Assembly: GCA_048594725.1 (NCBI GenBank)
Contig: JBMDXA010000018.1
Coordinates: 10,055-74,054, forward strand
Direction: 5' to 3'
Length of the DNA stretch: 64,000 nt
DNA from: Candidatus Kapaibacteriota bacterium
GTDB lineage: Bacteria; Bacteroidota; Ignavibacteria; OLB7
Both the position numbers and the translations under genes were made by a program. This document shows positions 6,137-63,245 of the stretch, in pieces; the stretch's first letter is position 1, and every line of letters starts with the position of its first letter. The notes below the pieces were generated by a model. The model saw only the letters and a program-made list of their open reading frames with translations, ran no database searches and was not told the origin of the DNA.

Positions 6137-6350
6137 GAGCCCCGAAGACGAAACAACGAAGAGCATCCCCATGCAGGTGGGGATGCTCTTTCTTTTTTAT
6201 GGAAGGATCGTTCTTAACAGAAAGGTCGGTGGTCGGTGCGCCGGCTTCGAGCGCCTCCGGCAGTTCGTGGTCGCCGGAGAATGAAATCGCCGGTGCCGCC
6301 GGGGCTTCCGGCGCAAGGACGACGGACTACCGGCGAGGGAATTCCCCCCA

Positions 6351-15505: not shown

Positions 15506-15558
15506 GATCGGGCAGAAACATCCGTGATCCACGGACTACCGACAGCCGGCGAAGCCTG

Positions 15559-16320
<762 letters not shown>

Positions 16321-17826: not shown

Positions 17827-17959
17827 CCCCAATCGAAAATCTCTCCCCAATCGTCCCCCTCTTCCCAATCGAAAATCCAAAATCGAAAATCGAAAATTCC
17901 CCCTCTTCCAATCCTCCCTCTTCCCAATCGAAAATCCAAAATCGAAAATCGAAAATCCC
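17827..17959. repeat. Largest block of the CGAAAAT-heptamer repeat family (about 50-bp unit duplicated)
   Basis: ccccAATCGAAAATCtctccccaatcgtccccctcttcccAATCGAAAATCCAAAATCGAAAATCGAAAATtccccctcttccaatcctccctcttcccAATCGAAAATCCAAAATCGAAAATCGAAAATccc. It fills most of the tolC-macA intergenic region and abuts the tolC stop (rc tca at 17960-17962). Confidence 0.8.
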
Positions 17960-19312: not shown

Positions 19313-20177
19313 GGTGTGGCCTTACGGGATGGTTCGCAAAGTGTTACGCCCATCATGCCGGGAGGTACGATTCGTTCGTATGATTTTATGCGGTGGATAC
19401 AGCAGCCCCCCGCTCGCCGGGGAACGAGGTGGCATCTGCGCTCCGTGCCCGCCGGGGCCGGATGGGTGATATGCGGGCGGGTACGCGCCGATAGCCCGGC
19501 ATCAGGAAACGAAGGCTCCCGGCCAGGCTATATGAATGGCTGTAGATCTAGCTCCCCTACCCCGTGCAAAACTACGAGATTTCAGCGGACTGCATGGCGG
19601 GCAGGCCGGCTATCCGTTATCTGCACTATAGACAGAGGACTACTCACAACGGAGCGATCTTCCGAGCGGCGGGTACGTGCACACCATGACAGAACACCAG
19701 GATGCATCGGGAGCGGCCGGTATAAGTAGACCGGTCCCCTGCATGCGGCTTCCGTCCGTCATGGATATGACGATTCCCTGCTCCTGGCTGCATGGGGCCA
19801 TGGCGGCACGGGAACGTGCTGGCAATCCGGCATGATCGCATCAATCCGGTAGCGGGCGCCGTACTGACAGGGATCGGCAAGGTCCGATAACGGGTCTCCT
19901 GTGACACAGGTTCCTGGTAACGATGATCTGCGTACGATCATTGTTATCAGCGGAACCGGGCGGGGTCACCGGCTGACGTTCGATCGATGAAGGATGTTCA
20001 CGATCCGGCCGTGCATCAACCACATGGGGAGCACTGCTCGTTGGATTGTAAAGAGCTGATTGAGTTCGAGAGGGAGTTACTGCATCGGGAGTGTGTACCG
20101 GTTGGCGGCGTATCCGGTCACGTTTTCGCCGTAGATATCATGGACCGAGCCGAGACATCGAGACAAGACCCGATGAC

Positions 20178-25288: not shown

Positions 25289-25424
25289 AAGGGTCAGTGG
25301 TCAGTGCGCGGGCTGCGCCCGCTGTCCGTGGTCCGTGGCTGGTGGAGCAGGGGCTTGCGGCAACTGGGGAGAAGATCTTCTCTCCAACTCCGGACCCCGA
25401 ACTCGGGGGCTCCAGAACTATTCT

Positions 25425-25456
25425 CCCCGATCGAAAATCCAAAATCGAAAATCTCC
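25425..25456. repeat. Copy of the CGAAAAT-heptamer repeat family
   Basis: ccccgATCGAAAATCCAAAATCGAAAATctcc, between the S8 peptidase and the ABC exporter genes. Confidence 0.5.
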
Positions 25457-25672
25457 AGGAACGATTTGTATCCCTCCCCCGTTCCTGCTTCCCGTAGATT
25501 CCCGCAAGAGCGGGCTAGTCCCTGCCGGGGGCCGGCTCCGGAGCCATAGAGTTCCTCTCCGGCCGGGTGCCGGCATGGCGCCCCTGCTACTGAACGCGGC
25601 GGATACACCTTCATTCAATCCCCCGGCGCCGCGCCGCGATGGCCGCGGCCGTGGGGATATCATACAGGCACG

Positions 25673-28619: not shown

Positions 28620-28841
28620 ATGAGCACATTGTATGCCCCTGGAGGCACATCCCCATCCTGGCAGAATCGTGATGCAAGCACGCTGAATGATACATGGGGG
28701 GCAGATATCCAGAACGCTCCCACGTTTATCCCCGTATCGGATTACGAAGCAGGCCGTCGCGACGGTGTGATGATCGGTCTTATCCTCGGCGCCCTCTCCG
28801 GTGCAATCATCTCGATGCTCTTCGGATTCATCATCTGGTGA
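28620..28841 (+). CDS. Small hypothetical protein with C-terminal TM helix
   Basis: 73 aa. C-terminal GVMIGLILGALSGAIISMLFGFIIW. Codon bias only moderate. Confidence 0.3.
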   Translation: MSTLYAPGGTSPSWQNRDASTLNDTWGADIQNAPTFIPVSDYEAGRRDGVMIGLILGALSGAIISMLFGFIIW

Positions 28842-28969
28842 GGCCGGAATACCAGAAGAATTGCTGTTAGAAACGAAGGCCCGGCCGGGAATACTGCTCC
28901 CAGCCGGGCTTTTGCATAACAGGCCGGTTTTGCCAGTGCCAGCAGCGCCCTCCGGGCTCCCGGCACGGA

Positions 28970-30448
28970 CTACCCGGCCATGGCTATCTCCCCGGCGCGT
29001 GCGTCGCACACATCGCAGTTGCCGCAGGGGGGCTCGTCGTGGAAGCCGAAATACTCGGCGATGAAGACGCGGCGGCAGCTCTCGCTCCGGAAATAATGCA
29101 CCATCGCCAGCAGCTTCCGGTTGGCGGCGGTCAGCTTTTCCTGCAGGGCGTCCTCGTCCAGCAGCTCGTCCGGCAGCGCATCCACCACCCGGAGATTCCG
29201 CTCCTCGATCGATCCCTCCGTGACGCCATAACGATCCAGCATGCCCAGCGCGGTCTCCAGACGGAAATCGCGGCGGTTCCTGAAGTTGAGCTGCTCGCGG
29301 AGATGGTCCATGCCGAGCGCATTCGCCATCTCCCCCTCCCCTTCCAGCAGGCCGTACAGGCGCCCGTAGAAGCCCGCGTTCGGGTTGGACCATTTGATGA
29401 AATCCATCTGGATCTGAAGATCATCCTGGTCGTACAGCAGCAGGCAGAGCGCATCCCTGCCATCGCGCCCGGCGCGGCCGATCTCCTGGTAATACGATTC
29501 CACCGACGATGGAACCTCCGCATGGATGATATAGCGGATATCCGGCTTGTCGATCCCCATGCCGAACGCGTTGGTGGCGAGTATCAGCATATTCTCCCCT
29601 TCGATGAACCGCCGCCCGGTGCTCTTGCGAGCGTTCGCCGGCAGCTTGCCGTGGTAGACGCTGTGGCGCACCCCCTTGCTCCGCAGGGTCTCGGAGAACC
29701 GCTCCAGCGTCCCGATCAGAGAGAAGTAGATGATGCCGGAACCGCCGTAGCGCCGGGCCACATCGATCATCGATTCGATCTTCTCCCGCTCCGAGAAGAT
29801 CTCCCGCCCCTGAAGCCTGAGGTTCGGGCGGCGTATCCCCTCGTGGATGATCTCCACATCCTCCAGCCCCAGCCGCGCCACGATATCCTTCTGCACCTCC
29901 TGCGTGGCCGTGGCGGTAAGGGCCACGGTAACCGGATTGCCGATAAGCTCGCGGAACTCGCCGAGCCGCGAATAATCGGGACGGAAATCGTGCCCCCACT
30001 CGGAGATGCAGTGCGCCTCGTCAACCGCCAGCAGCGATATCCGCGCCTCTCGTATGCGCTGCACGAACTCCGGCTTGCGGAAGCGTTCCGGGGTGACATA
30101 CAGCAGCTTGTAGCGCCCGGCGAGGAAATCCTCCAGACGCTTCTCGCGATCGGCCTTCGAGACCGTGGAGTTGATGAACGCCGCCGGGATGCCCCGCCGG
30201 CGCAGGGCATCCACCTGATCCTGCATCAGCGCTATCAGGGGGCTTATCACCAGGGTTCCCCCCTCAAGCGCCAGGGCCGGCACCTGGTAGCAGAGCGATT
30301 TTCCTCCGCCGGTGGGCATCAGCACCAGACAGTGCCCCCGCTCCCCGCCGATGCCGAGCAGGCGGTTGATGATATGTTCCTGCTCTCCGCGAAAGCTCTC
30401 GAAACCGAACGATGAACGGAGGATATCGATTGGGGGGTGAAGAAGCAT
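28970..30448 (-). CDS. recQ: ATP-dependent DNA helicase RecQ
   Basis: [18 protein letters not shown]; Walker [18 protein letters not shown]; DEAH box [21 protein letters not shown]; helicase C motifs; zinc-binding/RQC region. Start chosen at MLLHPP (cat at 30446-30448). The upstream part of the ORF has no coding character and is full of repeats. Confidence 0.9.
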
Positions 30449-30469
30449 GGAAAAGATAGGAGTGCTTGG

Positions 30470-30665
30470 ATTGTAGAACGTAGTTCGTAGTCTGCCGCCT
30501 GCGGCGGCTGTAGATAGTAGTCTGCAGGGAGAAGGTCCGTGCTCGGTAGTCCGCCGTCGGCCGGACGGCACTGCACACCATACTGGTAGATTCAGGAATA
30601 ACGGCGACGGACTACTGATAGCGTACCGACAGCGGGCGAAGCCCGCGAACGGACTACGCACATCT
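30470..30665. repeat. Cluster of GTAGTC / ACGGACTAC REP-like motifs upstream of recQ
   Basis: gtagtctgccgcctgcggcggc...gtagtctgcag...ggtagtccgccgtcggccggacgg...acggactactgatagcgtaccgacaGCGGGCgaaGCCCGCgaACGGACTACgcac. Multiple copies of GTAGTC and its complement, including a hairpin+ACGGACTAC unit that recurs elsewhere in the window. Confidence 0.5.
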
Positions 30666-30872
30666 CTGCCAGTCGTCAATCGAAAATCTTCAAGGCCGGC
30701 CAAAATCGTCATTCCCGCCGAATAGGGAAAATGTTCGTAGCATTGCCGGACGTTCCAGATGTGTTATCTTTGGGCATTCCCAAACGGCCGGGCGCTGCTG
30801 CATCATGGCGACACGATAGAGAGTTTCGGAACGTCGGTACAAGGCAGCGCTCAGCAGTCGCACGGTATATCC

Positions 30873-30954
30873 GGAGGGCTCGCATAATGGTATTGCAGCG
30901 GTCTTGAAAACCGCCGGGCGCAAGCCTGTGGGGGTTCGAGTCCCTCGCCCTCCG
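30873..30954 (+). tRNA. tRNA-Ser (anticodon UGA)
   Basis: Acceptor stem GGAGGGC/GCCCTCC (7 bp perfect). D-arm GCA-TAATGGTAT-TGC. Anticodon arm GCGGT-CTTGAAA-ACCGC, so U33 and anticodon TGA. Long variable arm with GGGC-GCAA-GCCT. T-arm GGGGG-TTCGAGT-CCCTC. Discriminator G. CCA not encoded. Confidence 0.8.
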
Positions 30955-30965
30955 CTTCCTCATAC

Positions 30966-30983
30966 GTCCCAGGGGTCTGGGAC
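30966..30983 (+). terminator. Hairpin immediately after the tRNA-Ser (terminator-like)
   Basis: GTCCCAG-gggt-CTGGGAC followed by CTTCTTG. Confidence 0.45.
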
Positions 30984-31140
30984 CTTCTTGTAATCAGGAT
31001 GGATGGTGGTGCTCTGCCGTTTGTAGCGATTGGTCCTCCTCGCGGCGACCTGTAGGGGCATCGTCCATCAACATTCTCCGCGATCGCATCCCATACGCTG
31101 CCAAACTTCCTCTCCTGCGTAGATCCGATATGTATTCGAT

Positions 31141-31713
31141 ATGATCAATCCCATAAAGAGTCGTGTTCTTACTGCTATATTGCTGCTTCTGTGCGCCCTC
31201 GGCACCGGCGGCTGCCTTACTGCCGAGCGGAAGGAAATCGTTCTGAAGGTGAAACCCGATGGCTCCGGCTCCGGTACCATCACCTTCTACAACATCGGCT
31301 CGATAGAGGAAAACGGCAGCGATATCAGCATCCGCGATTATACCGATCTGATGAGCAATTATCTGAAAGGGAAGAAGTTCGAGGAGACCTATCCCGAATA
31401 TATCAACCTGAAGAAACGGCTCTACGAGAACGATGGACAGCTCAACGGCGAGGTCACCTTCGACTTCATCCATTACGAGGACGCCGGCCTGTATCGCTAT
31501 CAGGAGAAGGGCCCGTGGATGTATCACGTGGGGCAGCGCTCCGATTTCGCCGTCGAAACCTTCGATGCCAGCAGCGGCACCGTGCCGAACACCCTGATGC
31601 CGGTGGCATTCTGGCCTGCGGAAACCACCGAGTTCCGCATCACCTCGAAATTCGATGGCTCCGAAGCGACCCGTTCCCTCCTCCCCCTGTTCAGGCGTAT
31701 CGGAACCGACTAA
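31141..31713 (+). CDS. Hypothetical lipoprotein
   Basis: Signal peptide plus lipobox MINPIKSRVLTAILLLLCALGTGGC. Lower GC than neighbours. Confidence 0.6.
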   Translation: MINPIKSRVLTAILLLLCALGTGGCLTAERKEIVLKVKPDGSGSGTITFYNIGSIEENGSDISIRDYTDLMSNYLKGKKFEETYPEYINLKKRLYENDGQLNGEVTFDFIHYEDAGLYRYQEKGPWMYHVGQRSDFAVETFDASSGTVPNTLMPVAFWPAETTEFRITSKFDGSEATRSLLPLFRRIGTD

Positions 31714-31719
31714 CAGCCC

Positions 31720-32529
31720 ATGCGAACAGAGGAATTTCTAGCCCGCTTTGCACGGGAATTGCCGCTGGAACTGGCGATGGCCGATGATCCGGTGGGAATC
31801 CAGGTGATGGCGGAGGACCGCGAACTGCACACCGTTGCAGTTGCCTACGAAGTGAACGAACAGATGGTGGCGCGCGCCGCCGAGGCGGGAGCCGAACTTA
31901 TCGTCGCCTTCCACCCGCTGATCTATCCCTCGCTGAAACGGATCACCAGAGGCAGCCGTGTGGAACGCACGGTGGTGGAGCTTATCAGCCGCCGTATCGC
32001 GCTCTATATCGTGCACACGGCGTTCGATGCCCACCCCGATGGTACCAGCGCCCTTCTGGGACGCCGGCTAGGTCTGGCCGCTCTGCGTCCCCTGGTCCCG
32101 GACTCACGCCATGAAGGGGCCGGCATGGGGGCGATAGGTATTCTGCCGGAACCGATGGAACTGCACCAGCTTGCACGCCTGCTGAAAGATGCCTGCGGAG
32201 CCCAGGGGGTACGGATATCGGTTTCCCCGGATCGCCCGCAGAGCCCGGTGGTGCAGAGGGTGGCGATCCTCGGCGGAAGCGGGATGAGTTTTTACGACCG
32301 CGCGGTAGAGGCCGGGGCCGATGCATTTATTACCGCCGATGTGCGCTATCATGCGTTTCATGCGGCCAACGATCACATCCCCCTGCTCGATCCCGGCCAT
32401 GCCGAATCCGAGGCGCTGGTAACCGGCGGGATGGCGGCGCTTCTGGCACGGGCGGCCCAGGGGCTGGAACCGGCGGTTGGCGTGGTGGCGCTGGAGGATT
32501 CTACCAATCCCGTGCGCCTGATCGTATAA
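31720..32529 (+). CDS. Nif3-family dinuclear metal centre protein (YqfO/YbgI-like)
   Basis: ...IQVMAEDRELHTVAVAYEVNEQMVARAAEAGAELIVAFHPLIYPSLKRI... and C-terminal ...ITADVRYHAFHAANDHIPLLDPGHAESE are typical of the Nif3/NGG1p-interacting factor 3 family. Confidence 0.85.
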   Translation: MRTEEFLARFARELPLELAMADDPVGIQVMAEDRELHTVAVAYEVNEQMVARAAEAGAELIVAFHPLIYPSLKRITRGSRVERTVVELISRRIALYIVHTAFDAHPDGTSALLGRRLGLAALRPLVPDSRHEGAGMGAIGILPEPMELHQLARLLKDACGAQGVRISVSPDRPQSPVVQRVAILGGSGMSFYDRAVEAGADAFITADVRYHAFHAANDHIPLLDPGHAESEALVTGGMAALLARAAQGLEPAVGVVALEDSTNPVRLIV

Positions 32530-32583
32530 CAAGAATTTGAAATTTACATTCAACGGCTGAGATCATAACGGAGGCAATCAATC

Positions 32584-33306
32584 GTGGAAGAAGTACTTCG
32601 AGCACTCTACAGACTACAACAGATCGATCTGGAGCTCGATGAGCTGAATGACGGAGGGGGCGATCTGCCGGCCGAGGTCGATCAGCTTCAGAAGAAAATC
32701 GATGAGCTCTCGGCCGCCATGGCGGTTGAAGAGGGGAAGCTCCGCGATCTCCGTGAGTCGCGCACCGGCGCCAACAACGCCATCAACGATATGCGCGAGC
32801 GGGTGAAGATGCTGAACGAACGGCTTCGTACGGTGCGCAACAACAAGGAATACGAGGCCACCACCGCCGATATCGCTTCGGCCGAGGAGGAGCTTCTTGC
32901 CATGGAACGCTCCACCACCACGGTCAATACCCAGGAGGCGATGCTGATCCGCGATATCGAAACGATCAACCGGCAGCGCGAGGAACTGGTCAAGGAGATG
33001 GACGAGAAGAACGATACTCTCACCACCATCCGCGATACGCACGCCGATGAGATCAACTCTCTTCGCACCGCCCGCGAGGAAGTGGCATCCCAGATCAGCC
33101 CCGATCTGCTGAAGCGCTACCGCCATATCCGCACCGCTCACGACGACGCAGTGGTGAAGGTGCGCAAGGGAGCCTGCAACGGCTGCTACCGCGCCATCCC
33201 CCCGCAGACGCTCGTGGAGATGCGCCGCTCCGAACAGCTCTTCAGCTGCGAACACTGCGGCCGTATCATCGTCGATGAGGAAATCGCCGCATCGGTGACG
33301 GTGTAG
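32584..33306 (+). CDS. C4-type zinc-ribbon domain protein (COG1579/DUF164-like), coiled-coil
   Basis: Long coiled-coil (ALYRLQQIDLELDELN...), then C-terminal CNGCYRAIPPQTLVEMRRSEQLFSCEHCGRIIV. This is the classic genomic partner of Nif3. Confidence 0.8.
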   Translation: MEEVLRALYRLQQIDLELDELNDGGGDLPAEVDQLQKKIDELSAAMAVEEGKLRDLRESRTGANNAINDMRERVKMLNERLRTVRNNKEYEATTADIASAEEELLAMERSTTTVNTQEAMLIRDIETINRQREELVKEMDEKNDTLTTIRDTHADEINSLRTAREEVASQISPDLLKRYRHIRTAHDDAVVKVRKGACNGCYRAIPPQTLVEMRRSEQLFSCEHCGRIIVDEEIAASVTV

Positions 33307-33365
33307 TCAGTAGTCAGTAGTCAGTAGTCAGTAGTCAGTAGTCAGTAGTCAGTAGTCAGTAGTCA
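33303..33365. repeat. Heptanucleotide microsatellite (GTAGTCA)x9
   Basis: Nine perfect tandem copies starting inside the TAG stop codon of the zinc-ribbon gene (stop 33304-33306). The complement GACTACT is the core of the ACGGACTAC(T) REP-like motif. Confidence 0.9.
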
Positions 33366-33549
33366 AAATGGCGAAGCTGCTAGCCATGTCAATGCTAATC
33401 AATCACGCTTCGCCGGCTCTACTCCGGATGCCGGGGTTTCAGCCACGAACGACGGACTACTGACGACGGACCAATACCTGATAACCAGAGAAATGCCTCA
33501 GCCAGCCGTATAGCGTTGGCGGCGCTATCTGAATCCCGATCTTTGACAT

Positions 33550-33998
33550 CTCCGGAGTGTGTCGGGCAGTCGCTCGCCGATCATTCGGCGGGAGGAACGT
33601 CCGAACTCCATAGGGCAACGTGCCAGCTAACGGCTGGGCGCCCAATCCCGCGCCGGAAACGGCCGGGAGAGGCGACGGAAAGTGCAACAGAAAGGATACC
33701 GCCCCGTTCCGGCCCGCAGCTGCAATACCAGATGCGGGCCGGGACGGGGTAAGGGTGAAATGGCGAGGTAAGAGCTCACCGCATCCCGGGCAACCGGGAT
33801 GGCAGTGCAAACCCCACGTGGAGCAAGGCCAAATAGGGTGTCGTCATGGAGCTGCCCGCTCCCGATCCTCCCCTCGCGGGAAAAGATCACGGCACCGGGT
33901 AGGCTGCTAGAGGGCGCGGGCGACCGCGCTCCCAGAGAAATGACTGCCTCCACCACCAGGTGTAGACAGAATTCGGCGTACAGACACGCTTCGGAGTA
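33550..33998 (+). ncRNA. rnpB: RNase P RNA, bacterial type A
   Basis: Conserved blocks: GGAGGAACGTCCGAACTCCATAGGGCAA (P4 5' strand), GTGCAACAGAAAGGATACCGCC, GGGGTAAGGGTGAAATGGCGAGGTAAGAGCTCACC, GGAGCAAGGCCAAATAGGG, ACAGAATTCGGCGTACAG (P4 3' strand). P1 pairing CCGGAGTGTGTC (33552-33563) with GACACGCTTCGG (33983-33994). Ends are approximate to within about 10 nt. Confidence 0.85.
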
Positions 33999-34227
33999 TG
34001 TTGTTTTCAGGATTGCGGATGGCGATTGCAGAAGCGATCCGTAACGGCCATGGAAGATCGGACCGATCGATCGTACCGATCTCCCCCCCGTTCGTCGCAG
34101 CGGAAACTTCCGGCCGGTTCCGGTATGATTCATCGATGGGGACCCCGAGGGTCCCTTTTCCTTTTCCCCTTCATTCCTCCTCCCCACGCCCCGGCGCGGG
34201 ACCACGTTCATCAACTTGCACCCGTAG

Positions 34228-34545
34228 ATGACACGCCTGGAACAGATGCTCTCCTTTCTGGAGCAGGACCCGAACGACAGCTTCACCCGCTATGCCGTGG
34301 GGCTGGAATATATGAGCCTCAAGGACTATCCGACCGCAGCACGATATCTGAATGAACTGCGCGAGCGCGATCCCGCCTATGTGGCAACCTACTACCAGCT
34401 CGGCCAGCTCTATACGACCCTGGAGGAATGGGACAAGGCCGAGGAAGCCTATACGGCCGGCACCGCCGTGGCCCGCAATGTCCGCGATCTGCATGCCCTC
34501 AGCGAACTGCAGGCCGCACTCGATGATCTGGAAACGCTGCGATAG
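34228..34545 (+). CDS. Small TPR-repeat protein
   Basis: Two to three TPR-like units: ...DSFTRYAVGLEYMSLKDYPTAARYLNELRERDPAYVATYYQLGQLYTTLEEWDKAEEAY... Confidence 0.5.
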   Translation: MTRLEQMLSFLEQDPNDSFTRYAVGLEYMSLKDYPTAARYLNELRERDPAYVATYYQLGQLYTTLEEWDKAEEAYTAGTAVARNVRDLHALSELQAALDDLETLR

Positions 34546-34701
34546 AAGAGCCGAGTCGGGAGAAAAGCCGGGGAGCCGGAAAGCAGATATACGGTGGAGT
34601 GTGGGATGTCAGGGTGGCGACCTGTTCGCATATCTCGCATGAGAGATTATCAGCAGGCAGCAACCCGCGTTATCGATAGAACTCCATCCCCTGCCACGAA
34701 C

Positions 34702-34728
34702 CGCGGGCAGAGCCCGCGCACGGACTAC
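34702..34728. repeat. REP-like element (GC hairpin + ACGGACTAC)
   Basis: CGCGGGCagaGCCCGCGcACGGACTAC. Near-identical in layout to 30632-30657 (aGCGGGCgaaGCCCGCgaACGGACTAC). It lies between convergent genes. Confidence 0.5.
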
Positions 34729-34756
34729 TGGCCCCGGTACCACCGGCCCCGCCCCA

Positions 34757-35650
34757 TTATTTCCCCTCCGCTTTTTCTCTCCATTCCTCCTCCTCTCTTC
34801 CGGCCAGCCGTGCGGTGGCAACGGCAAGCTCGGTGAACAGAGTGGAATATTCCGGCGCCAGCCGCCGCACCGCCTCCCCCTGCATGGCAACCACATCCCC
34901 ATCACCCCGTGATATGGGCCCGGTAAGGGCGGCGGACGGCCCTACCTCCTCCCCCCGCTCCGCGCTGGCAGCGATGAACTGCGCCACGATCCGCCGCGCC
35001 TGCGCCTCCGGGATTCCGGCACGCCGGTACAGATCCAGCGCGATGGCAAAAAGCGCTACCGAATAATTGGCCGCAACCGAGGCCGCAGCATGGTAGAGCG
35101 GGCGATACTCGTCGGAAAGCGAAACCAGCTGCGGCGCCACATCACCGATCAACCGCCGCACAACCGGCAGAAGATCCTCGTCCGGTTCCGAAATACTCCA
35201 TACAAGCCCCGGCGGAATCGCCTCGGTGCCGGTGAACGAGCCATTCGGATGCAGGGCGAAGATCGTGGCACCGCGATCGGCGAGAGGGGCCAGAACGCCG
35301 GCAGATGTGGCTCCCGACGAGTGGAGCACCGCAATCCCCTTCCAGTCCCCGCGCTGCCGCGCAAGCATGCCCGCCACCTCGCGCAGCGATATATCGGCAG
35401 TCACAATCCAGACGATATCGTACGACTCCGGATCGATGGCTTCAAGTGATGCGATAACCGGAACACCGCGAAGAAGTACTTCAAGTGCCTTCCCTTTCGC
35501 CATGTCGCGCAACAATACGGCGCCTATAGCCTCGGGGATCGTGCGAAGAATCGATTGCGCGAACCGTCCCCCTCCTACAAGGATCACTCCCCTCTTTTTT
35601 CCCCCGGCTCCTCCCTTCTCTCCGGAATTTTCGCTGCTGTGCTGTGCCAT
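34757..35650 (-). CDS. Rossmann-fold NAD(P)-binding protein (DUF2520-like)
   Basis: GxGxxA motif VILVGGGRFAQSI near the N-terminus. C-terminal helical domain resembling ketopantoate reductase/prephenate dehydrogenase folds. Start chosen at MAQHSS (cat at 35648-35650). Confidence 0.65.
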   Translation of the reverse strand: MAQHSSENSGEKGGAGGKKRGVILVGGGRFAQSILRTIPEAIGAVLLRDMAKGKALEVLLRGVPVIASLEAIDPESYDIVWIVTADISLREVAGMLARQRGDWKGIAVLHSSGATSAGVLAPLADRGATIFALHPNGSFTGTEAIPPGLVWSISEPDEDLLPVVRRLIGDVAPQLVSLSDEYRPLYHAAASVAANYSVALFAIALDLYRRAGIPEAQARRIVAQFIAASAERGEEVGPSAALTGPISRGDGDVVAMQGEAVRRLAPEYSTLFTELAVATARLAGREEEEWREKAEGK

Positions 35651-35822: not shown

Positions 35823-36080
35823 ATGAAGATGCGCGCGTTCTTCTTTACTGCGCTTCTCGCTTCCGGTCTCCTCTTCACCGCATGCGGTGGCAATCACGAA
35901 GAGGGTGCTACTGGTGACACGACGACGATGGCTCCGGCAACCGAGACCTCGACGACGACCACGACCACCACGACGGCTCCGTCGGCCGACACTGCGGTCC
36001 TGGTTCCGAACGGCGATACGGCTGTCGTCAACACCAGCAGCACGACTACGACCACGACCACTGACACCACGAAGAAGTAA
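35823..36080 (+). CDS. Small Thr-rich lipoprotein, hypothetical
   Basis: MKMRAFFFTALLASGLLFTACGG lipobox, followed by Thr/Ser-rich low-complexity sequence. A strong terminator follows. Confidence 0.5.
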   Translation: MKMRAFFFTALLASGLLFTACGGNHEEGATGDTTTMAPATETSTTTTTTTTAPSADTAVLVPNGDTAVVNTSSTTTTTTTDTTKK

Positions 36081-36109
36081 TTTCTTCCGGTATACTGGAA
36101 GTGTTTATA

Positions 36110-36150
36110 AAATCCCCTACCGATGGCAACATGGGTAGGGGATTTCTTAT
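36110..36150 (+). terminator. Rho-independent terminator
   Basis: AAATCCCCTACC-gatggcaacat-GGTAGGGGATTT (12-bp perfect stem) followed by CTTATT. Confidence 0.6.
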
Positions 36151-36312
36151 TGAGAGTGCTGGCTTTTTCGTCCGCCACCTGCGGCGGCTGTGGTTGGCCG
36201 ATTGTAGTGCGTGGTTTTTAGCGCCTGGGTCCTGGGAAGAACGCCGGTATTCAGCCCGCGGGCGCCGCCGTCTTCCGGCCCCGGACTTCGTTCTCCTGGC
36301 CCGGAGTTCCTC

Positions 36313-39300
36313 TCACTTCACGATCCGTACGCTCTCCCGCAGAACCGCCGATGGCGTCTGCAGCAGAAGCCAGTAGCTGCCGCTGGGCAGGGCGGTGGCG
36401 TCGATTGTGGCGGCATAACGGCCGGGCGCCGCATCGGCGTCGGCAAACGGCACCAGGACCTCGTTGCCTTGCGGATCGTACAGCAGAAGCCGCGTGGCCC
36501 CCTGCTCTATCGTCTCGAACTCCACGATGCCCCGCTCGCGAATGGGATTGGGACGGGAGACCGACAGACGGAGAAAGCCCTGCGAGCCGAGCAACCGCAC
36601 GCCCCCTTCGCGGCACAGCCCGAGCGTGCGGAAGATGCCGTCGATGGTGTCATGCAGGCGCACCGGGGAGCTATCGGCGGCGCGGCGAAGATCGGAGCCG
36701 GCAAAGGCAAGCGGCGTGGTCTCGGCCGCGCCGAGAGCCGCGGTCGCATGAAGCTCCGCCAGCACCCCCGAGTCCGGGAATACCCCCTCCACCTCGATGG
36801 TGACGATCCGGCCGCCCCCGCGAACCTCATCGCCGATGATGCGCGCACGCAGGCGGCCATCCCCCGCATCCACGCCGAGAGGAAAGAGCATCGACGCATC
36901 GAACCGCACGGCGGTACGCAGCCGCAACGTATCGGCGGGAACGGGGATGGTGCGCTGCTCCACGCGCAGACGCAGCACGGCATCCTCACCGATCATCCCC
37001 TCGCTCTCCTCCCAGCGAAGCCCCAGCGTCCGCTGCTCGCTCCGCCCCCGCACGGCAAGACGCAGCGAGTCGGGACAGGGAGAAAGCTCCCGCAGCACGG
37101 CCATGCCGTTCAGACTATCACCGGCCACGGAGGGCGTGTAGAGAACTTCCAGTTCCACCATCTCCCCCGGCAGCAGCACCGTATCGCTGCCAGGACGCAC
37201 GATCCGCACGCCATCCAGATCGCCGGCCAGCGATGCGGCCGACAGCGTGCGCGCCACCGTTGAAGCGTTGGTGACGGTGACGATCGCACGCGCTGTAAGC
37301 GGGGTCTGTACGGCCCCGAAATCGATAACGGAGGAGGAGAGTACAAAGCCGCCGCCATCGCGCGCGCCGCGCAGGTAGACCACCCGCTCGCTGCCGCACG
37401 CCCTGGAGCGGAGCACGATGCTGTCGCGGAACGCACCATCGCCCACGGGCCGGAAACGGACCGTCACCGGCACCCGCACCCCCACCGGCGTCTCGATCGG
37501 GGAACCAGGGAGCACCACCTGGAACACTCCCGTGGAAGGGAGATGCACCACATCGAACGTGTCGGGGAGTTCGCCCCTGTTCTCCAGCATCAGGCCGGTC
37601 TCCAAGAGGCTGTCGCAACGGTTCAGCAAACCGAAGTCGATACTGTCGCCGGAGAATACCACTGCCGCGCCGGTGCGGCGGCCACGCGCCGGCACGAAGA
37701 ATTCCTGGCCGCACTCTCCCAGCCGCAGCCGGATACCGCCGTTGAAGGCTCCGGCCGCTGTAAGCCCCACTACGAAATCGAACGTCACGGTATCCCCCGG
37801 CGCCGCCAGATCGCTTGTGGCGGAGCTGATCGCCACGCCGTCCAGTTCCAGCCGCTCGCGGATGCCCGCCACCGTCACGGTTCCCCGGTTGGCGAACCGC
37901 AGGCTCAGCACCGGAGAGGGAGCACAGAAATCGGTGACGCCGAAATCGAGCGATCCCTCTATCGGCACCAGCAGAAGCGAGTCGTTGCGGACATCGAACG
38001 GAATGGCGCTGGTATCGGCGTCGCTGCTTATCAGACGGAGCGCGGCAACACGAACCCCGAGCGGCCCCGGCGTATAGATCACCTGCGAGCTGCCGCTCTC
38101 CCCCGGCTGAAGAACGGTTCCCACCGGAGAGACCGGCAGGGAGAACTCGGCGGCGGCCGGACCGATGATATCCGCCTGAACGATGGTAACCGGAGAGTCG
38201 GTCCGGTTCACGAACGCGGCAACTATGGTATCAGGAGATTTCGGCGCGCAGAGCAGCCGTACAGAATCGAGCGGACCGGAGGATAGCGCCCCCCCTTCCA
38301 GCCGCACTCCGCGAAGAAGCACGGTCTGCGGCTCCGGACAGTTGGACGAGATGAACGTGATGCGCCCATCGAAGGACCCGGCCGCCAGCGGCATGAACCG
38401 CAGCGTTACGGGGATGGATTCTCCCGGAGCTATCACCGCCGGGAACGACGGGGCTACGACGGTGAACTCCGGGGGAGTGATCGCCGGAGAGAGAACCGTC
38501 ATGGGAACCTGCGCCGGATTGCTCAGCGTGATGGTGCGCTCCGCATACGGCACCAGAGCCGGGAGGCTCCCGAAATCGAGCGTGGCCCCGGCTCCCGGCG
38601 TAACAAGGAGGCGATCATCGGTAAAGCGCACCCGTATCACGAAGATCCTCGGATTGCAGCCATCGCCATGCAGGACGATGCGCCCTTCGCGCGGCGCGGC
38701 CCCATCGGCGGCGATCCGCACTCTCAGCCTGATCGTCCCTCTCCCCTGCGCCGGAAGGGGGATGGGATTGTTCCGGATATCATCGAGCGCCGTACCGGTC
38801 ACGCCGCCGAGAAATTCCACCGAGTCGATCTTCACCGGAGGGATGGTATCGGGAAGAATGAAGTTGAGCGTGAGAGTGGTATCGATCGTGGCCGGATCGA
38901 GACAGGTGTTGATAATCACATCCTCCAGCCTCACCGGCCAGGGAACCGTGACGCTCCCCGGCGATGCTGCAAACGCATCGGTAGCGGAATATCCGTACAC
39001 GTACGTGGCGAACGGCTCCCCGGCATCCACCAGATGATCTCCCGGCCCCACCTCCACCGCTCCGGCGATAAACGATCCGGCGGCATGGCGCTCCGCCCAG
39101 ACCGGCGGCAGGCCATCCACCAGCAATCCTGCTTCGGCGCGGGAGGGGATCATCACCTGGATGAAATATCGCCAGTCAACCGGATTGGAGCCGGACATGC
39201 GCGCGGCCATCGCCGGCACATACAGGCGTGCCCCCGCGCCCCACTGCCAGACCGACGGCACCACCACCATCGACGGATCGCCGAAGGGGGTATTCAGATC

Positions 39301-40263
39301 CTGAAGCGAGCGGGCGGTGCTGGTCCCCCACTGCACCATCATCACCGGCTGCGAGGCCGTCACATGGGAGAGCCCGAAATTCTCGAACTCCACCGTCTCC
39401 CCATTCATCAGCACGGCTATCTCCCCGCCATTGACCCTGACCGATGTGCCATCGCAGCGGGCCACCACGCTATACAGACCGCGCTCCTGGCGTACCAGCG
39501 GCCCCACCACAAACTGGTTGCCCCAGGAGTCGATATCGGGAAGCTGCTCGATAAGCGGGTTGCAGGCGCGCTCCGCCCCTATCGAAAAATTACCGCAGAT
39601 GGCACCGCTCAGCACTCCTACCGGACGGCTGGCAACCACCCGGCTTCCGGTAAGATCCACCGGGCCGGAGCCGGAGGTGAGCATCTGATAGACCTCTCCC
39701 CGGTCCAGCGCCACGGTAAACGGCGCATCCGCCGGCAGGCCGCCCCGCGTGGGGACCGCTGGCGTGATAGTGATCTCTGTTTCATCCTCGATCCCGATCA
39801 CCGTCATAAACGAGCCGCTGATGGCGCTTCTCGTGGAGACGGCGATATACTCGAACCCCAGAAGCGAATCGGGAATGGCGGCATACGATTCGCTCTCCGA
39901 CGCCTCCCCCTTATCGAGCAGAAGAGCGGCGGTGATCCCAGCCGAGGCATCGATCTGCACGGTTCTGCGGAACGTCCCCTCCTGCTGCGGGAGGATAAGC
40001 TCGGACGAGTCGATGGCGATCTCCACGGCCCCGCCGGGAGGGAGCGTGAGGGTCTGAACGCGGCCGGTGGCGGTGAACAGCAGACGCACCTCCGCACCAG
40101 GCCCGCTGTTCAGCAGCAGGCGGGCCACGGGGGTTGCCGAGCCGAACAGGGGAAGGGTGCCGGGAAGCGTCAGGACGAACGAACGCCCCGCGCCGGAGAC
40201 CTGTGCGGCCGCGCCGGCGCAAAGCAGAAGGAACAGGAGCAGAGAGGAAAGAATTCGGACCAT
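36313..40263 (-). CDS. Very large (1316 aa) secreted surface protein with repeated Ig-like/beta-sandwich domains and Por/T9SS-type C-terminal domain
   Basis: Signal peptide MVRILSSLLLFLLLCAGAAAQ. Multiple internally similar roughly 100-aa segments (..LDFG...TVTNAS..., ..TFDVVHLPSTGVFQV..). C-terminus ...SGSYWLLLQTPSAVLRESVRIVK. Confidence 0.8.
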   Translation of the reverse strand: MVRILSSLLLFLLLCAGAAAQVSGAGRSFVLTLPGTLPLFGSATPVARLLLNSGPGAEVRLLFTATGRVQTLTLPPGGAVEIAIDSSELILPQQEGTFRRTVQIDASAGITAALLLDKGEASESESYAAIPDSLLGFEYIAVSTRSAISGSFMTVIGIEDETEITITPAVPTRGGLPADAPFTVALDRGEVYQMLTSGSGPVDLTGSRVVASRPVGVLSGAICGNFSIGAERACNPLIEQLPDIDSWGNQFVVGPLVRQERGLYSVVARCDGTSVRVNGGEIAVLMNGETVEFENFGLSHVTASQPVMMVQWGTSTARSLQDLNTPFGDPSMVVVPSVWQWGAGARLYVPAMAARMSGSNPVDWRYFIQVMIPSRAEAGLLVDGLPPVWAERHAAGSFIAGAVEVGPGDHLVDAGEPFATYVYGYSATDAFAASPGSVTVPWPVRLEDVIINTCLDPATIDTTLTLNFILPDTIPPVKIDSVEFLGGVTGTALDDIRNNPIPLPAQGRGTIRLRVRIAADGAAPREGRIVLHGDGCNPRIFVIRVRFTDDRLLVTPGAGATLDFGSLPALVPYAERTITLSNPAQVPMTVLSPAITPPEFTVVAPSFPAVIAPGESIPVTLRFMPLAAGSFDGRITFISSNCPEPQTVLLRGVRLEGGALSSGPLDSVRLLCAPKSPDTIVAAFVNRTDSPVTIVQADIIGPAAAEFSLPVSPVGTVLQPGESGSSQVIYTPGPLGVRVAALRLISSDADTSAIPFDVRNDSLLLVPIEGSLDFGVTDFCAPSPVLSLRFANRGTVTVAGIRERLELDGVAISSATSDLAAPGDTVTFDFVVGLTAAGAFNGGIRLRLGECGQEFFVPARGRRTGAAVVFSGDSIDFGLLNRCDSLLETGLMLENRGELPDTFDVVHLPSTGVFQVVLPGSPIETPVGVRVPVTVRFRPVGDGAFRDSIVLRSRACGSERVVYLRGARDGGGFVLSSSVIDFGAVQTPLTARAIVTVTNASTVARTLSAASLAGDLDGVRIVRPGSDTVLLPGEMVELEVLYTPSVAGDSLNGMAVLRELSPCPDSLRLAVRGRSEQRTLGLRWEESEGMIGEDAVLRLRVEQRTIPVPADTLRLRTAVRFDASMLFPLGVDAGDGRLRARIIGDEVRGGGRIVTIEVEGVFPDSGVLAELHATAALGAAETTPLAFAGSDLRRAADSSPVRLHDTIDGIFRTLGLCREGGVRLLGSQGFLRLSVSRPNPIRERGIVEFETIEQGATRLLLYDPQGNEVLVPFADADAAPGRYAATIDATALPSGSYWLLLQTPSAVLRESVRIVK

Positions 40264-40499
40264 ACCTGCACAAGAATGAAGGGATTCTATCGGAATGGCT
40301 TGCCGGTCTCAATGTATGACGATACAGGGAAGGATCTGAGTAAAAAGACCACGGTGATAATCCCGAAAAAAATAAAGGCGCCCCGTCATGTTCCGAAGAA
40401 CGGAAACGGAGCGCCTTGAACCATGAAGGGTCTGCACGGGAACGATTCCCGCCTGCACATGCTTTTTCGAATCGGACGGCTGATAGCAGCCGGTGTGAA

Positions 40500-41069
40500 T
40501 TACGGGTTCAGAACCACGTCGGTCTTCTCCAGAACGAACCCTACGGTGCCATCCTCGGCAATGAATTCCAGCGGCTTGTCCTGCTGGACGTTCACCCCCT
40601 GAAGCGGCAGGCTGTTGACGTTGCTGGCACGGAGGTTCAGCGGGCCGTTCGAGAGATAACTCTGTCCGCCCAGAGCCGAACCGGTGGCCTGGAGGTTGAT
40701 ATTCAGATCAAGCTCGGCCGGGAAGAGCGTGGGGCTGCCGGCAGCACCGGTAAGGGTGGTGGGCTGCGAGGTCGGGACCAGGTTGGCATCGATCGTGCCG
40801 ATCTCGCCGGCGCCGTTGGAGCTGAACTGGTCCACCTCGAAGATCACCTGGCAGGGATTGTACTGCAGGCCGGTAACATGCACCACAGCCTGGCCGCTGC
40901 TGTTGGTGGGAGCCGGACCGCCCGGCAGCACCACCACCTTGCCGCCATTGACGAAGTAGCAGATATAGGTATCACCGATATTGGGGAGATCCGGGCACTG
41001 GGCATACGCCTTGCCGCCCACCAGAATCCCGGCGATCATAAGAGCGAAGAGATAAAAGAACTTGCGCAT
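40500..41069 (-). CDS. Secreted hypothetical protein (189 aa)
   Basis: Signal peptide MRKFFYLFALMIAGILVGGKAYAQ. Gly/Asn/Ser-rich beta-strand-like sequence. Same strand as the 1316-aa gene and immediately upstream of it. Confidence 0.6.
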   Translation of the reverse strand: MRKFFYLFALMIAGILVGGKAYAQCPDLPNIGDTYICYFVNGGKVVVLPGGPAPTNSSGQAVVHVTGLQYNPCQVIFEVDQFSSNGAGEIGTIDANLVPTSQPTTLTGAAGSPTLFPAELDLNINLQATGSALGGQSYLSNGPLNLRASNVNSLPLQGVNVQQDKPLEFIAEDGTVGFVLEKTDVVLNP

Positions 41070-41526
41070 GATTAATCCCTGTTCGGAGGTTTATACTTGT
41101 TGGTATCGCCGATTATCCTCTCGGAACATCTACGGCGTTCATCGTTTTACATGGTGCAATAATAGGGGTATGGTGGTGGCCCGAACTTCTCCCGGATTGC
41201 TCTCTTTACGCATCGCCCAGCTCTATCAGCCAGAAGGGATCACAGTATATCCGATAGCCTCACCGGATAGATTACGCAAAGCCGCCAAGGCGCAAAGGGA
41301 CGCAAAGAAAGAGAGAAAAAAAATGAGGCATATCACAGGAGAAATTGATTTTTTTCTTCTCAGCGATCTTTGCGGCTTTGCGCGAAATTCTTTGCACGAA
41401 TCCGGCTCTGCCATGTAATGATACTGGGCGCGAACCGCTGAAACGGCCGCGCCCAGTATCGTGCATTTCCCGGATAATTATTCCGCTATCCGCCGCCGGC
41501 TGCGATGCCGCCGTGCCAATAGGGGA

Positions 41527-42516
41527 TTATCCGACTCTCTTCACCGTGTTGATGAGGGTGCCGAGCATATCTATCTCGCACTCCACCACATCGCCATCCT
41601 TCAGCCACCAGTTATCGGTGATCTTGGAGCCGTTCAGTTCCAGGAAGCAGCCGGTTCCCACGGTGCCGGAGCCTATCACATCGCCGGGGTGAAGGGTAAC
41701 GCCGTAGGAGGCGCGCTCGAGGATCTGCGCGAACGTCCAGCTCATATCCTTCAGGTTGCCGCGCGACACCTCCGTGCCGTTGACACGGGTAACCATCGTC
41801 AGATCGTAGCGCTCCCCGTACTGCCCGGCGATCATCTTCGAGGAAAGCTCGTCGCGCGTGGCGAGGTACGGTCCGATCGAGGTGGCGAAATCCTTTCCCT
41901 TGGCCGGTCCCAGGCTCAGCTTCATCTCCTCCATCTGGAGGGCACGGGCCGACCAGTCGTTCATGACCGTATATCCGGCGATATATTCATCGGCCTCCGA
42001 AGCCTTGATATTACGCCCCTTGCGGCCGATCACGATGGCGCACTCCAGCTCGAAATCGAGCCGGTTGAGATGCTCCTCCATCACCTCCACCTCCCCGGGG
42101 CCGGTAACGGCCATATGGTTGGTGAAATAGAAGACCGGGAAGTGATCGAACTCCGGGATCATCTCCACACCGCGATTACGCCGTGCGGCCTCCACATGCT
42201 GGCGGAACGCATAGCCGTCGCGCATGGAGGTGGGACGGGGCACCGGTGCAAGAAGGGTCACATCGGAGATCAGAGGGCTGGAGGAGAGCAGGCTCCCCTC
42301 ATCCTGGGCACGGGCGATAAGCTCCCGCACCGCCGCCATCCCCCCCTCTCCCGCTTCCAGCAGGGAGATCATCGAGGAGAACGCGACGCCCCCGGCCTGA
42401 AGTGTCTCGGCCCCGCGCTGCAGATCGAGCACATGATCGCCGACAAGCGCGCCGAGGCGCCCACCGGAGATATCTCCTCCTGCATGTTCGCCAGATAGAT
42501 ACGTGACAAGTTTCAT
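41527..42516 (-). CDS. Fumarylacetoacetate hydrolase (FAH) family protein
   Basis: ...FELECAIVIGRKGRNIKASEADEYIAGYTVMNDWSARALQ...GSGTVGTGCFLELN... is typical of the FAH fold. Start at MKLVTYL (cat at 42514-42516). Confidence 0.85.
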   Translation of the reverse strand: MKLVTYLSGEHAGGDISGGRLGALVGDHVLDLQRGAETLQAGGVAFSSMISLLEAGEGGMAAVRELIARAQDEGSLLSSSPLISDVTLLAPVPRPTSMRDGYAFRQHVEAARRNRGVEMIPEFDHFPVFYFTNHMAVTGPGEVEVMEEHLNRLDFELECAIVIGRKGRNIKASEADEYIAGYTVMNDWSARALQMEEMKLSLGPAKGKDFATSIGPYLATRDELSSKMIAGQYGERYDLTMVTRVNGTEVSRGNLKDMSWTFAQILERASYGVTLHPGDVIGSGTVGTGCFLELNGSKITDNWWLKDGDVVECEIDMLGTLINTVKRVG

Positions 42517-43456: not shown

Positions 43457-43770
43457 AGCTGAACCGATAATATACGAGGAGGAGGCGGAAGAATGGGGCA
43501 GGAGATGGCAGTGAGAGGCCGGAAGAAGGCCGGCCGCCGATGGCTGGTAGCGCGAAGTTCTACTGCGCGACCCACAGTTCAGTTGTGGTGCTCCGGCAGC
43601 AACCGAGGAATGGCTCGCTCCTGCCGGAGCTTCCGACGGCAAGAGAATGAAACTCTCCTGCTCCAACCGGGCGCCCCCTCCAGGGGCCATCCACCCGGTA
43701 CATCATCTCGAACTCCTCCCCTGCCGGCTTCCTCTGCCAGACTCCTGCACCCCAGCCCCCATGTGCCTTC

Positions 43771-43810
43771 TCCCCAATCGAAAATCGAAAATCGCCAATC
43801 GAAAATCCCC
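43771..43810. repeat. Copy of the CGAAAAT-heptamer repeat family abutting the ppk stop
   Basis: ccccAATCGAAAATCGAAAATCGccAATCGAAAATccccc, immediately followed by the ppk stop codon (rc cta at 43811-43813). Confidence 0.6.
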
Positions 43811-48553: not shown

Positions 48554-48586
48554 GCTGGCAGGAGATGATCCTGCCAGTCTTTTTTC
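48554..48586 (+). terminator. Rho-independent terminator after ald
   Basis: CTGGCAGG-agatgat-CCTGCCAG followed by TCTTTTTTCC. Confidence 0.65.
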
Positions 48587-49112: not shown

Positions 49113-49146
49113 GCCAGAGAACAAACGCTCGCGGCGATAACGATCA

Positions 49147-49186
49147 GGGGAGGATGCCTTGCAGGCATCCTCCCCTTGTTTTTTTC
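49147..49186 (+). terminator. Rho-independent terminator
   Basis: GGGGAGGATGCC-ttgca-GGCATCCTCCCC (12-bp stem) followed by TTGTTTTTTTC. Confidence 0.65.
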
Positions 49187-63100: not shown

Positions 63101-63245
63101 GGTTTTCCGCAGAAGAGAAAAAAATGAGAATGCGAGCCTGCCCCGGCCAGGGAAAATAGAGGCAAAAAATGCCACTGAAAATCGATCACCACCATATCAT
63201 GTAACGCCTCTGCATATCATGTAACGCATCTGCCATGAAAAATTC

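Follow-up and report, generated by a model that had tools for sequence, protein, structure and literature searches.

The 64,000-nucleotide (nt) stretch of a Candidatus Kapaibacteriota genome analyzed here (contig JBMDXA010000018.1 of assembly GCA_048594725.1, referred to below as the window) carries a real family of non-coding intergenic repeats that resembles repetitive extragenic palindromic (REP) elements, has expanded in this lineage and is built on the heptamers GTAGTCA and GTAGTCC (general form GT-N-GT-C-N). The family combines a slippage-prone heptamer headed by GTAG with small GC hairpins and inverted pairing, and its runs extend from 1.3 to 9 units. An initial annotation of the sequence had drawn attention to a dispersed 9-mer, ACGGACTAC, and to the block at 30470-30665 upstream of recQ, and had read them as a REP-like element. 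The 9-mer is one heptamer, GTAGTCC, together with the GT that opens the next unit, ACGGACTAC being the reverse complement of these nine bases. The 30470-30665 block is itself an atypical member of the family: it separates recQ from tRNA-Ser, two divergent genes, and its four heads make up two inverted pairs, one nested in the other.

The dispersed 9-mer and its heptamer unit

Exact copies of ACGGACTAC number seven, all on the forward strand (6322, 15531, 28965, 30607, 30649, 33452, and 34720), against 0.15 expected, and none of 100 dinucleotide-preserving shuffles reaches this count. All seven are intergenic, a status that rests on our own gene calls from open reading frames (ORFs), GC content at third codon positions (GC3) and Pfam domains; with about 15% of the window non-coding, the chance probability of this placement is about 2e-6. 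The copy at 28965 overlaps the stop codon of recQ (28970-30448, reverse strand), whose TAG occupies 28970-28972. The initial annotation was correct about the number of copies and their intergenic location, while three of its coordinates (6313, 15532, and 28967, really 6322, 15531, and 28965) were off by 1-9 nt. An exact reverse complement that it had placed at 30546 matches at only eight of nine bases (GTAGTCCGC on the forward strand), and AGGACTAC is indeed found at 19636/19637. Within the 64 kb, the family amounts to these seven exact 9-mers and about 13 intergenic heads.

The periodic nature of the motif becomes apparent on the reverse strand, where it reads GTAGTCCGT and represents 1.3 units of the degenerate heptanucleotide GT-N-GT-C-N. 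A perfect (GTAGTCA)x9 array (100% identity) occupies 33303-33365, and related runs of two to three units, of the types GGTCAGT, GGTCGGT, GTCCGTG, and GTAGNNN, are found at 6224, 25292, and 30473. With one mismatch allowed, the periodic pattern GTNGTCNGTNGTC occurs 21 times against 2.9 expected. Three metagenome contigs (L066, L041, and L103) have arrays in which GTAGTCA takes turns with GTAGTCC, and every junction there reads GTAGTCCGT. The nine-unit array and these mixed arrays therefore identify the 9-mer as a junction of two heptamer units and not as the body of a REP.

The GC skew is negative along the whole forward strand, and the exact 9-mer copies are G/T-rich on the putative leading strand. 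A replication-strand bias was nevertheless rejected as a defining property of the family, since the 7/7 orientation vanishes once all related units are counted: GT-heptamer units then occur on both strands at about 4:6. A better explanation for the orientation of the exact copies is that units follow the sense strand of whichever gene terminates upstream of them.

Gene ends, hairpins, and inverted arms

The GT-rich strand of the repeats is the sense strand of the gene ending just upstream. Heads start 3 nt after the same-strand stop of the subtilase gene, 20 nt after that of the ABC ATPase gene, 21 nt after miaA and 29 nt after the DUF2520 gene, and the stops of recQ and of the Zn-ribbon gene (distance 0) are the TAG of GTAG itself. 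The same placement is seen in metagenomes, where, of 92 arrays flanked by 400 nt or more, 67 (73%) start between -25 and +40 nt from a same-strand stop of an ORF of at least 100 codons, compared with 11% of random positions. Start codons are lacking from the arrays, whereas every one of the six frames is closed by stops, as TAG on the GT-rich strand and as TGA on the opposite one.

Small GC hairpins accompany many of the heads in the window. Eight of the 13 intergenic heads lie within 20 nt of such a hairpin (random mean 1.8; none of 5000 permutations reaches eight), and a perfect hairpin (stem of at least 6 bp, within 14 nt) follows 5 of 24 GTAGTC hexamers, compared with 0-1 for control hexamers. 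The stems are 6-7 bp long with loops of 3-5 nt (6297, 25308, 30494, 30553, 30632, and 34702). Their sequences differ: GCGGGC/GCCCGC is used three times and the others are GCCGCC, GCCGTC, CGCCGG, and TCCGTG, too few copies for defining subfamilies. The gap between the GTAGTC hexamer and the stem also varies, from about 1 to 11 nt. The two nearly identical hairpins that had been noted ahead of the motif are present (GCGGGC-gaa-GCCCGC at 30632-30646 and CGCGGGC-aga-GCCCGCG at 34702-34718), as is CGACAGCCGGCGAAGCC on the 3' side of the 15531 copy, which is identical in 16 of 17 bases to 30625-30641. The stack of units reported upstream of recQ likewise stands, with GTAGTC at 30487, 30517, and 30546 and GACTAC at 30610 and 30652.

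Heads are also arranged in inverted pairs. The arms 6225-6244/6308-6327 are 80% complementary, 30534-30559/30602-30627 are 73% complementary, and the nine-unit array and 33449-33471 are 83% complementary, this third pair spanning about 33306-33471. The resulting palindromic units are about 70-170 nt long, with their GTAG heads facing outward. The members of the family in the window are as follows, those of the recQ upstream block first.

30473-30493, forward strand: a tandem run of degenerate heptamers, three in number (GTAGAAC GTAGTTC GTAGTCT); in the sense of recQ these are AC-rich units about 25-45 nt before the ATG
30494-30508, unstranded: GC hairpin GCCGCC-tgc-GGCGGC, with GTAG heptamers on both flanks
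30510-30523, forward strand: two heptamers, GTAGATA GTAGTCT
30535-30552, forward strand: head GTCCGTG-ctcg-GTAGTCC, left arm of the inner inverted pair
30553-30569, unstranded: GC hairpin GCCGTC-ggccg-GACGGC, directly 3' of the GTAGTCC head
30603-30615, reverse strand: GTAGTCCGTCGCC, which contains the 9-mer copy 30607-30615 and forms the inner pair's right arm
30632-30646, unstranded: GC hairpin GCGGGC-gaa-GCCCGC, in a 41-nt unit (30620-30660) that folds with z = -3.5
30649-30657, reverse strand: 9-mer copy GTAGTCCGT, forming the outer inverted pair with 30479-30492
6224-6330, reverse strand: 107-nt palindromic unit 21 nt past the miaA stop with arms 80% complementary, made up of GTAGTCCGTCGTCC (6330 to 6317), the hairpin CGCCGG-ggctt-CCGGCG (6297-6313) and (GGTCGGT)x2 (6224-6237)
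15521-15559, reverse strand: 9-mer copy 20 nt past the ABC ATPase stop, with its own TCCGTG in the stem TCCGTG-gat-CACGGA and a degenerate version of the CGACAGCGGGCGAAGCCCGC hairpin ahead of it
25292-25338, forward strand: (GGTCAGT)x2, the hairpin GCGGGC-tgc-GCCCGC and TGTCCGT GGTCCGT GG, 3 nt past the subtilase stop; same family, without an exact 9-mer
28952-28973, reverse strand: 9-mer copy supplying the recQ stop TAG (28970-28972), then a CCGGG-ag-CCCGG stem-loop
33303-33365, forward strand: perfect (GTAGTCA)x9; the Zn-ribbon (CT398-like) gene takes its stop codon from the first TAG
33449-33472, reverse strand: inverted heptamer arm GGTCCGTC GTCAGTA GTCCGTC GT, including the 9-mer 33452-33460, 83% complementary to the nine-unit array and bounding with it a palindromic unit of about 170 nt that is absent from the relative L003
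34702-34728, reverse strand: 9-mer copy and hairpin CGCGGGC-aga-GCCCGCG, 29 nt past the DUF2520 stop

Relatives, metagenomes, and other features of the window

The window is placed in an uncultured lineage of Bacteroidota by its RecQ, which shares 73% identity with proteins listed under 'Candidatus Kapabacteria bacterium' or 'Bacteroidota bacterium', together with genes for CHU_C and Por_Secre_tail domains, which point to type IX secretion. Comparison with related loci shows that repeat units were gained in this lineage. A syntenic locus of a relative (L003, GCA_964455525.1; RecQ 81% identical) has no copy of ACGGACTAC and no period-7 arrays. The spacer between the Zn-ribbon gene and rnpB measures 26 nt there and follows a TAA stop, compared with 231 nt and a TAG stop in the window, and one degenerate copy, GCGCCCGCTGTTGGTAGTCCCGTCGCG, is retained. 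No recognizable target-site duplication emerges from this comparison of filled (window) and empty (L003) sites. In a locus with a RecQ of 78% identity (L004), the end of recQ reads AGT AGT CAG TAG TAAG, which is GTAGTCA GTAGTAA in the same place, and in another (L005, 73%), a 73-bp unit is repeated 2.4 times in the ppk-VTT spacer with the inverted arms ACTGACAACTGACTACTAACGACGGAC and GTCAGTGGTAGGTAGTCAGTAG. Four further loci (L006-L009, 70-74%) contain hardly any heptamer units. Across L003-L009, the family therefore predates the species, is patchy among relatives and has been strongly expanded in the present genome.

The heptamer is also widespread outside this group. A scan of Joint Genome Institute (JGI) metagenomes with GTAGTCAGTAGTCAGTAG found (GTAGTCA)n arrays in at least 120 contigs; among the matches listed, the GC content of the contigs spans 36-71%, and five array contigs have a cyanobacterial density of HIP1 while most are without it. 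An inverted partner lies downstream of 36 of the 92 arrays and upstream of one, largely because convergent genes each carry their own GT array on the sense strand. The 150 ORFs nearest to these arrays represent 191 Pfam families, none of them recurrent. Among co-occurring exact heptamer duplicates, 21% have a CAGT/ACTG core compared with 5.5% expected. A pattern search of genome contigs for hairpin and motif together (GCGGGCNNNGCCCGCGNACGGACTAC) gave a single match, at 2775-2800 of a contig (L002) from a Solidesulfovibrio magneticus metagenome-assembled genome. This lone hairpin between convergent genes was rejected as a family member and looks like chance, because its CTA is the stop of the convergent ABC ATPase gene and no further copy is present.

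Two metagenome observations concern larger units. Near-identical 86-nt palindromes at L103 1601-1686 and L109 14557-14632 (TTCGTAGTCCGGCCTTCAGGCGGAAGTT...AACTTCCGCCTGAAGGCCGGACTACGAA) end in GTAGTCC/GGACTAC and resemble a classical GTAG-headed REP or a MITE (a miniature transposable element with inverted repeats); both contigs also hold GTAGTCC/GTAGTCA arrays. In a HIP1-rich, cyanobacterial contig (L018, 3935-4150), a 52-nt unit is repeated in tandem at least four times and consists of GTAGTCA, TTGGTCA, and the hairpin GCGAGCG-tccc-CGCTCGC, another composite of heptamer and hairpin.

Several other features of the window were noted. A second dispersed element based on a heptamer consists of a 44-nt unit, CCCTCTTCCCAATCGAAAATCCAAAATCGAAAATCGAAAATYCC, with AAAATCG repeats, and its copies are 73-98% identical (forward strand 2650-2693, 17857-17900, 17916-17959, 25419-25462, and 43766-43809; reverse strand 3652, 15479, and 27536). 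It often lies directly 3' of stop codons and twice adjoins GTAGTC-type units, and it is probably the one that the initial annotation counted before the present REP-like element. The spacer past a 936-aa Por_Secre_tail gene contains a 20-nt direct repeat, CATATCATGTAACGCATCTG, in two copies (63193-63233, 95% identical). RecQ is short (492 aa; DEAD, Helicase_C, and RecQ_Zn_bind domains, without RQC or HRDC), and its last approximately ten codons, which end inside the repeat, are wholly different among relatives. Ahead of tRNA-Ser (30873-30955) and RNase P RNA (33554-33996) are the boxes TATCTTTG (30767-30774) and GATCTTTG (33536-33543), each with a TTG about 19 nt upstream; both resemble the Bacteroidota -33/-7 promoter type, and the rnpB box is conserved in L003. 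Canonical hairpins with U-tracts are found at 6151-6198, 48555-48586, and 49146-49185; ordinary terminators are therefore in use in this organism next to the hairpins that accompany the repeats. Finally, a 5.6-kb block (35903-41543) with a gene for a giant IgGFc_binding/Ig-like protein of 1316 aa (36313-40263) is absent from the syntenic L003 locus and present beside the FAA_hydrolase gene in L005.

Explanations and known systems

The explanation that we favor, with a probability of roughly 0.6, is that of a heptamer repeat family whose arrays change by slippage and whose stem-loops are co-transcribed at gene 3' ends, with a function suggested by this placement. Units would arise or insert at gene ends, and arrays would lengthen or shorten by replication slippage in 7-nt steps. 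The stops in all six frames and the lack of start codons would allow them to be tolerated right against ORFs. Through co-transcription with the upstream gene, RNA stem-loops would form in 3' untranslated regions or intercistronic spacers, where they would buffer 3' ends, a role known for REPs, and would not act as U-tract terminators. Dispersal of the units could be the work of an enzyme of the Y1 type found in REP-associated tyrosine transposases (RAYTs), or of de novo seeding together with recombination.

A number of observations weigh against this explanation. The evidence from the source genome spans 64 kb, and the function is a putative one, proposed from position. Folding is only moderately better than that of shuffled sequences, with best z-scores of -3.5 (30620-30660) and -2.9 (33298-33478), the next at -2.1 and -2.0 and the others weaker than -1.8. 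The association with short hairpins is specific to the window: in metagenome arrays it is seen at 2.3%, the same as in controls, and a short hairpin beside GTAGTC was accordingly rejected as a general rule. In addition, seven exact 9-mers with variable flanks represent more conservation than slippage and decay predict, a hint that the copies spread recently or that the head itself is under selection.

A possibility distinctly less probable than the slippage-based explanation is that the elements are a bona fide GTAG-tagged family of REPs or REPINs (inverted REP pairs), spread as single-stranded GTAG plus hairpin by a Y1 HUH transposase (RAYT/TnpA-REP) encoded in the genome. A GTAG head beside a 6-7-bp stem with a 3-nt loop, head-to-head dimers 40-120 nt apart, location at ORF 3' ends and donation of the TAG are all features of such families (PMC3733652). 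The single orientation of the seven exact copies, on the strand with positive GC skew, fits a single-strand mechanism, and the 86-nt palindromes of L103 and L109 end in GTAGTCC/GGACTAC. TnpA-REP requires GTAG and a hairpin (Corneloup et al., PMC8266576), and Y1 TnpA subclasses 2.4 and 2.6 with 'atypical' flanking structures exist in Bacteroidetes (Quentin et al., PMC6006769), which therefore makes a partner enzyme plausible. However, REP families conserve the stem, and here both the stem sequence and its spacing from the head vary. Related GT-heptamers occupy both strands at about 4:6, and the heptamer is found in contigs of 36-71% GC among the matches listed, whereas REPs co-evolve with their RAYT and are lineage-specific.

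The search for a partner enzyme adds to this side of the balance, as no Y1 or RAYT gene was found among the window ORFs or the related loci. Pfam identified no Y1_Tnp domain in the approximately 55 window ORFs, and no transposase family was recurrent or top-listed among the 150 ORFs nearest to metagenome arrays. Over the window and 129 loci (about 800 kb of related loci), no RAYT was detected by phmmer (RayT and IS200 queries) or by an HUH...Y regular expression in 6264 ORFs, a negative of little weight given that genes of this kind number one or a few per genome. The description of the repeats as REPs or as bacterial interspersed mosaic elements (BIMEs) holds in part: they are dispersed, intergenic, placed at gene ends with heads beside GC stem-loops and arranged in inverted pairs, but stems and spacing are variable. 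Binding of gyrase, IHF, or RNase, which the initial annotation named for such elements in other bacteria, would be pure analogy here.

It is unlikely that the arrays are instead bound, in a register of 7 nt, by a nucleic-acid-binding protein such as a post-transcriptional regulator that reads UAG-N4 repeats on RNA. HutP reads UAG triplets with 4-nt spacing. The 9-mer head is exact at seven sites while the flanks vary, sense-oriented units stand by stop codons, and the GTAGTCA unit is common to many taxa. The AC-rich units 25-45 nt before the recQ ATG recall the TAACTGA repeats of BOGUAY, for which a regulator reading the repeats on RNA has been proposed (PMC4679880). Nevertheless, members that lack UAG (GGTCAGT, GGTCCGT, and GGTCGGT) occupy equivalent positions, the genes that flank the arrays share no function (191 Pfam families in 150 neighboring ORFs) and the window contains no candidate binding protein.

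A more speculative idea, which we hold to be about as doubtful, would make the arrays and the GTAG-headed hairpins one system. GTAGTCM would be a minimal REP head (a guide tetranucleotide plus a CA/TC cleavage dinucleotide) that a Y1 HUH nuclease of the type of Bacteroidota or Cyanobacteria (subclass 2.4 or 2.6) cuts and rejoins, with staggered rejoining giving 7-nt arrays and transposition giving dispersed 9-mers. If this were true, it would tie heptamers of the TAACTGA type and the short tandemly repeated repetitive (STRR) sequences mechanistically to REPs and would explain both the shared CAGT/GTAG-type core and the distribution over Cyanobacteria and Bacteroidota.

The remaining possibilities are far weaker. 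A genome-wide oriented signal, such as a DNA uptake sequence or a motif like Chi or KOPS, is very improbable: the exact 9-mer core is strongly over-represented and has one orientation relative to GC skew, but such motifs lie mostly inside genes, and the restriction of 7/7 copies to the non-coding approximately 15% of the DNA therefore largely excludes them, while the motif dissolves into a heptamer family on both strands and the 9-mer is absent from the relative with 81% RecQ identity. Less credible still is a promoter or intrinsic-terminator consensus, which the position in spacers next to genes and the hairpins might suggest, as the motif-linked hairpins have no U/T-run on their 3' side (canonical U-tract terminators are at 6151-6198, 48555, and 49146), rnpB and tRNA-Ser have TTG/TAnnTTTG-like promoters that lie apart from the motif, and the syntenic sites of L003 do not conserve it; the initial annotation had named such a consensus as grounds for abandoning its reading, and the motif proves distinct from both TAnnTTTG-type promoters and U-tract terminators. 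A transcription-factor operator was rejected in view of the location at 3' ends and of arms 40-120 nt apart.

REPs and STRRs are abundant short intergenic repeats that are poorly understood, and to our knowledge nearly all work on them has been carried out in Proteobacteria and Cyanobacteria. The present case is a GTAG-headed, hairpin-associated repeat in an uncultured, Kapabacteria-like member of the Bacteroidota, in which conservation centers on a heptamer prone to slippage; arrays of this heptamer are also found at the 3' ends of genes in a wide range of unrelated genomes from the environment. Were heptamer arrays and REP-type heads truly linked, this would offer a handle on the origin of such repeats, candidate substrates for Y1 nucleases and 7-nt polymorphisms that can be traced in populations. 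From a practical standpoint, the units shift stop codons, inflate spacers and break assemblies, and masking them is advisable before promoters, terminators, or small RNAs are predicted in these genomes.

Comparison with described repeats places the family between several known systems. A literature search for GTAGTCA/TGACTAC as a repeat gave nothing relevant, and a permissive Rfam scan of 28800-34800 identified only tRNA-Ser and RNase P RNA, with no match on the repeats. The closest likeness is to the GTAG-tagged REPs (E. coli REP/BIME, Pseudomonas REP/REPIN, and Stenotrophomonas SMAG), in which an unpaired GTAG adjoins a 6-13-bp stem closed by a short loop (for most families 2-4 nt), the distance to ORF 3' ends is below 20 bp and the TAG stop is frequently donated by the element, and dimers are 20-100 bp apart (Di Nocera et al. 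2013, PMC3733652). The repeats described here share the unpaired GTAG at a short GC stem-loop, a strictly extragenic location within about 20-30 nt of ORF 3' ends, the use of the TAG of GTAG as a stop, outward-headed inverted dimers, and species-specific expansion. The earlier statement that their sequence is unrelated to enterobacterial REPs is not fully accurate, as the terminal CTAC/GTAG is the tag that defines the GTAG-REP superfamily, including the REPs of E. coli (PMC3733652). In the same survey, the GTAG type was recorded from Proteobacteria, Cyanobacteria, Chloroflexi, and the PVC group, whereas Bacteroidetes and Chlorobi yielded only the CGTC type. Membership is marked by a stem conserved save for compensatory changes, by copies that typically exceed 100 per genome and by a RAYT gene that is usually flanked by repeats (PMC3733652). 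In contrast to these families, the conserved part here appears to be the head, GTAGTCCGT, and not the stem, whose sequence and distance from the head differ; the head is 7-nt periodic and grows into tandem arrays; and searches of the available sequence turned up no RAYT gene.

A second likeness is to the heptamer repeats, which include the cyanobacterial STRRs, the long simple sequence repeats (LSSRs) reportedly described by Mrazek in 2007, and the TAACTGA repeats. What the family in the window has in common with them is short 7-nt direct arrays with single-base variants that are intergenic and abut start or stop codons. The TAACTGA repeats of Beggiatoaceae, Cyanobacteria, and five Bacteroidetes are intergenic and lineage-specific, close every reading frame with a stop, are missing from close relatives and lack a known function (MacGregor 2015, PMC4679880); stops in every frame and absence from relatives of the same gene order are likewise seen for the family in the window. 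On the opposite strand, its unit reads CTACTGA or CAACTGA and matches TAACTGA at five to six of seven bases. The unit sequence itself, GTAGTCA/GTAGTCC, is nevertheless not that of TAACTGA, CCCCAGT, TTGGTCA, or CAACAGT, with which it has no more than the ACTGA/CAGT core in common. The unit also differs in lying mainly just past stop codons on the sense strand and not just ahead of start codons, in being regularly paired with an inverted array (as well as, in the present genome, with small GC hairpins) and in the dispersal of solitary 1.3-unit heads as an exact 9-mer.

Lastly, the family can be compared with MITEs and REPINs. It departs from MITEs in that its arms consist of heptamer repeats and not of unique terminal inverted repeats, with no target-site duplication identified and no partner transposase found. 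Like MITEs and REPINs (Correia elements; the REPINs of P. fluorescens, PMC3116915), it nevertheless consists of intergenic units of 70-170 nt with imperfect inverted arms, and a site filled in the window is empty at the syntenic position in a relative.

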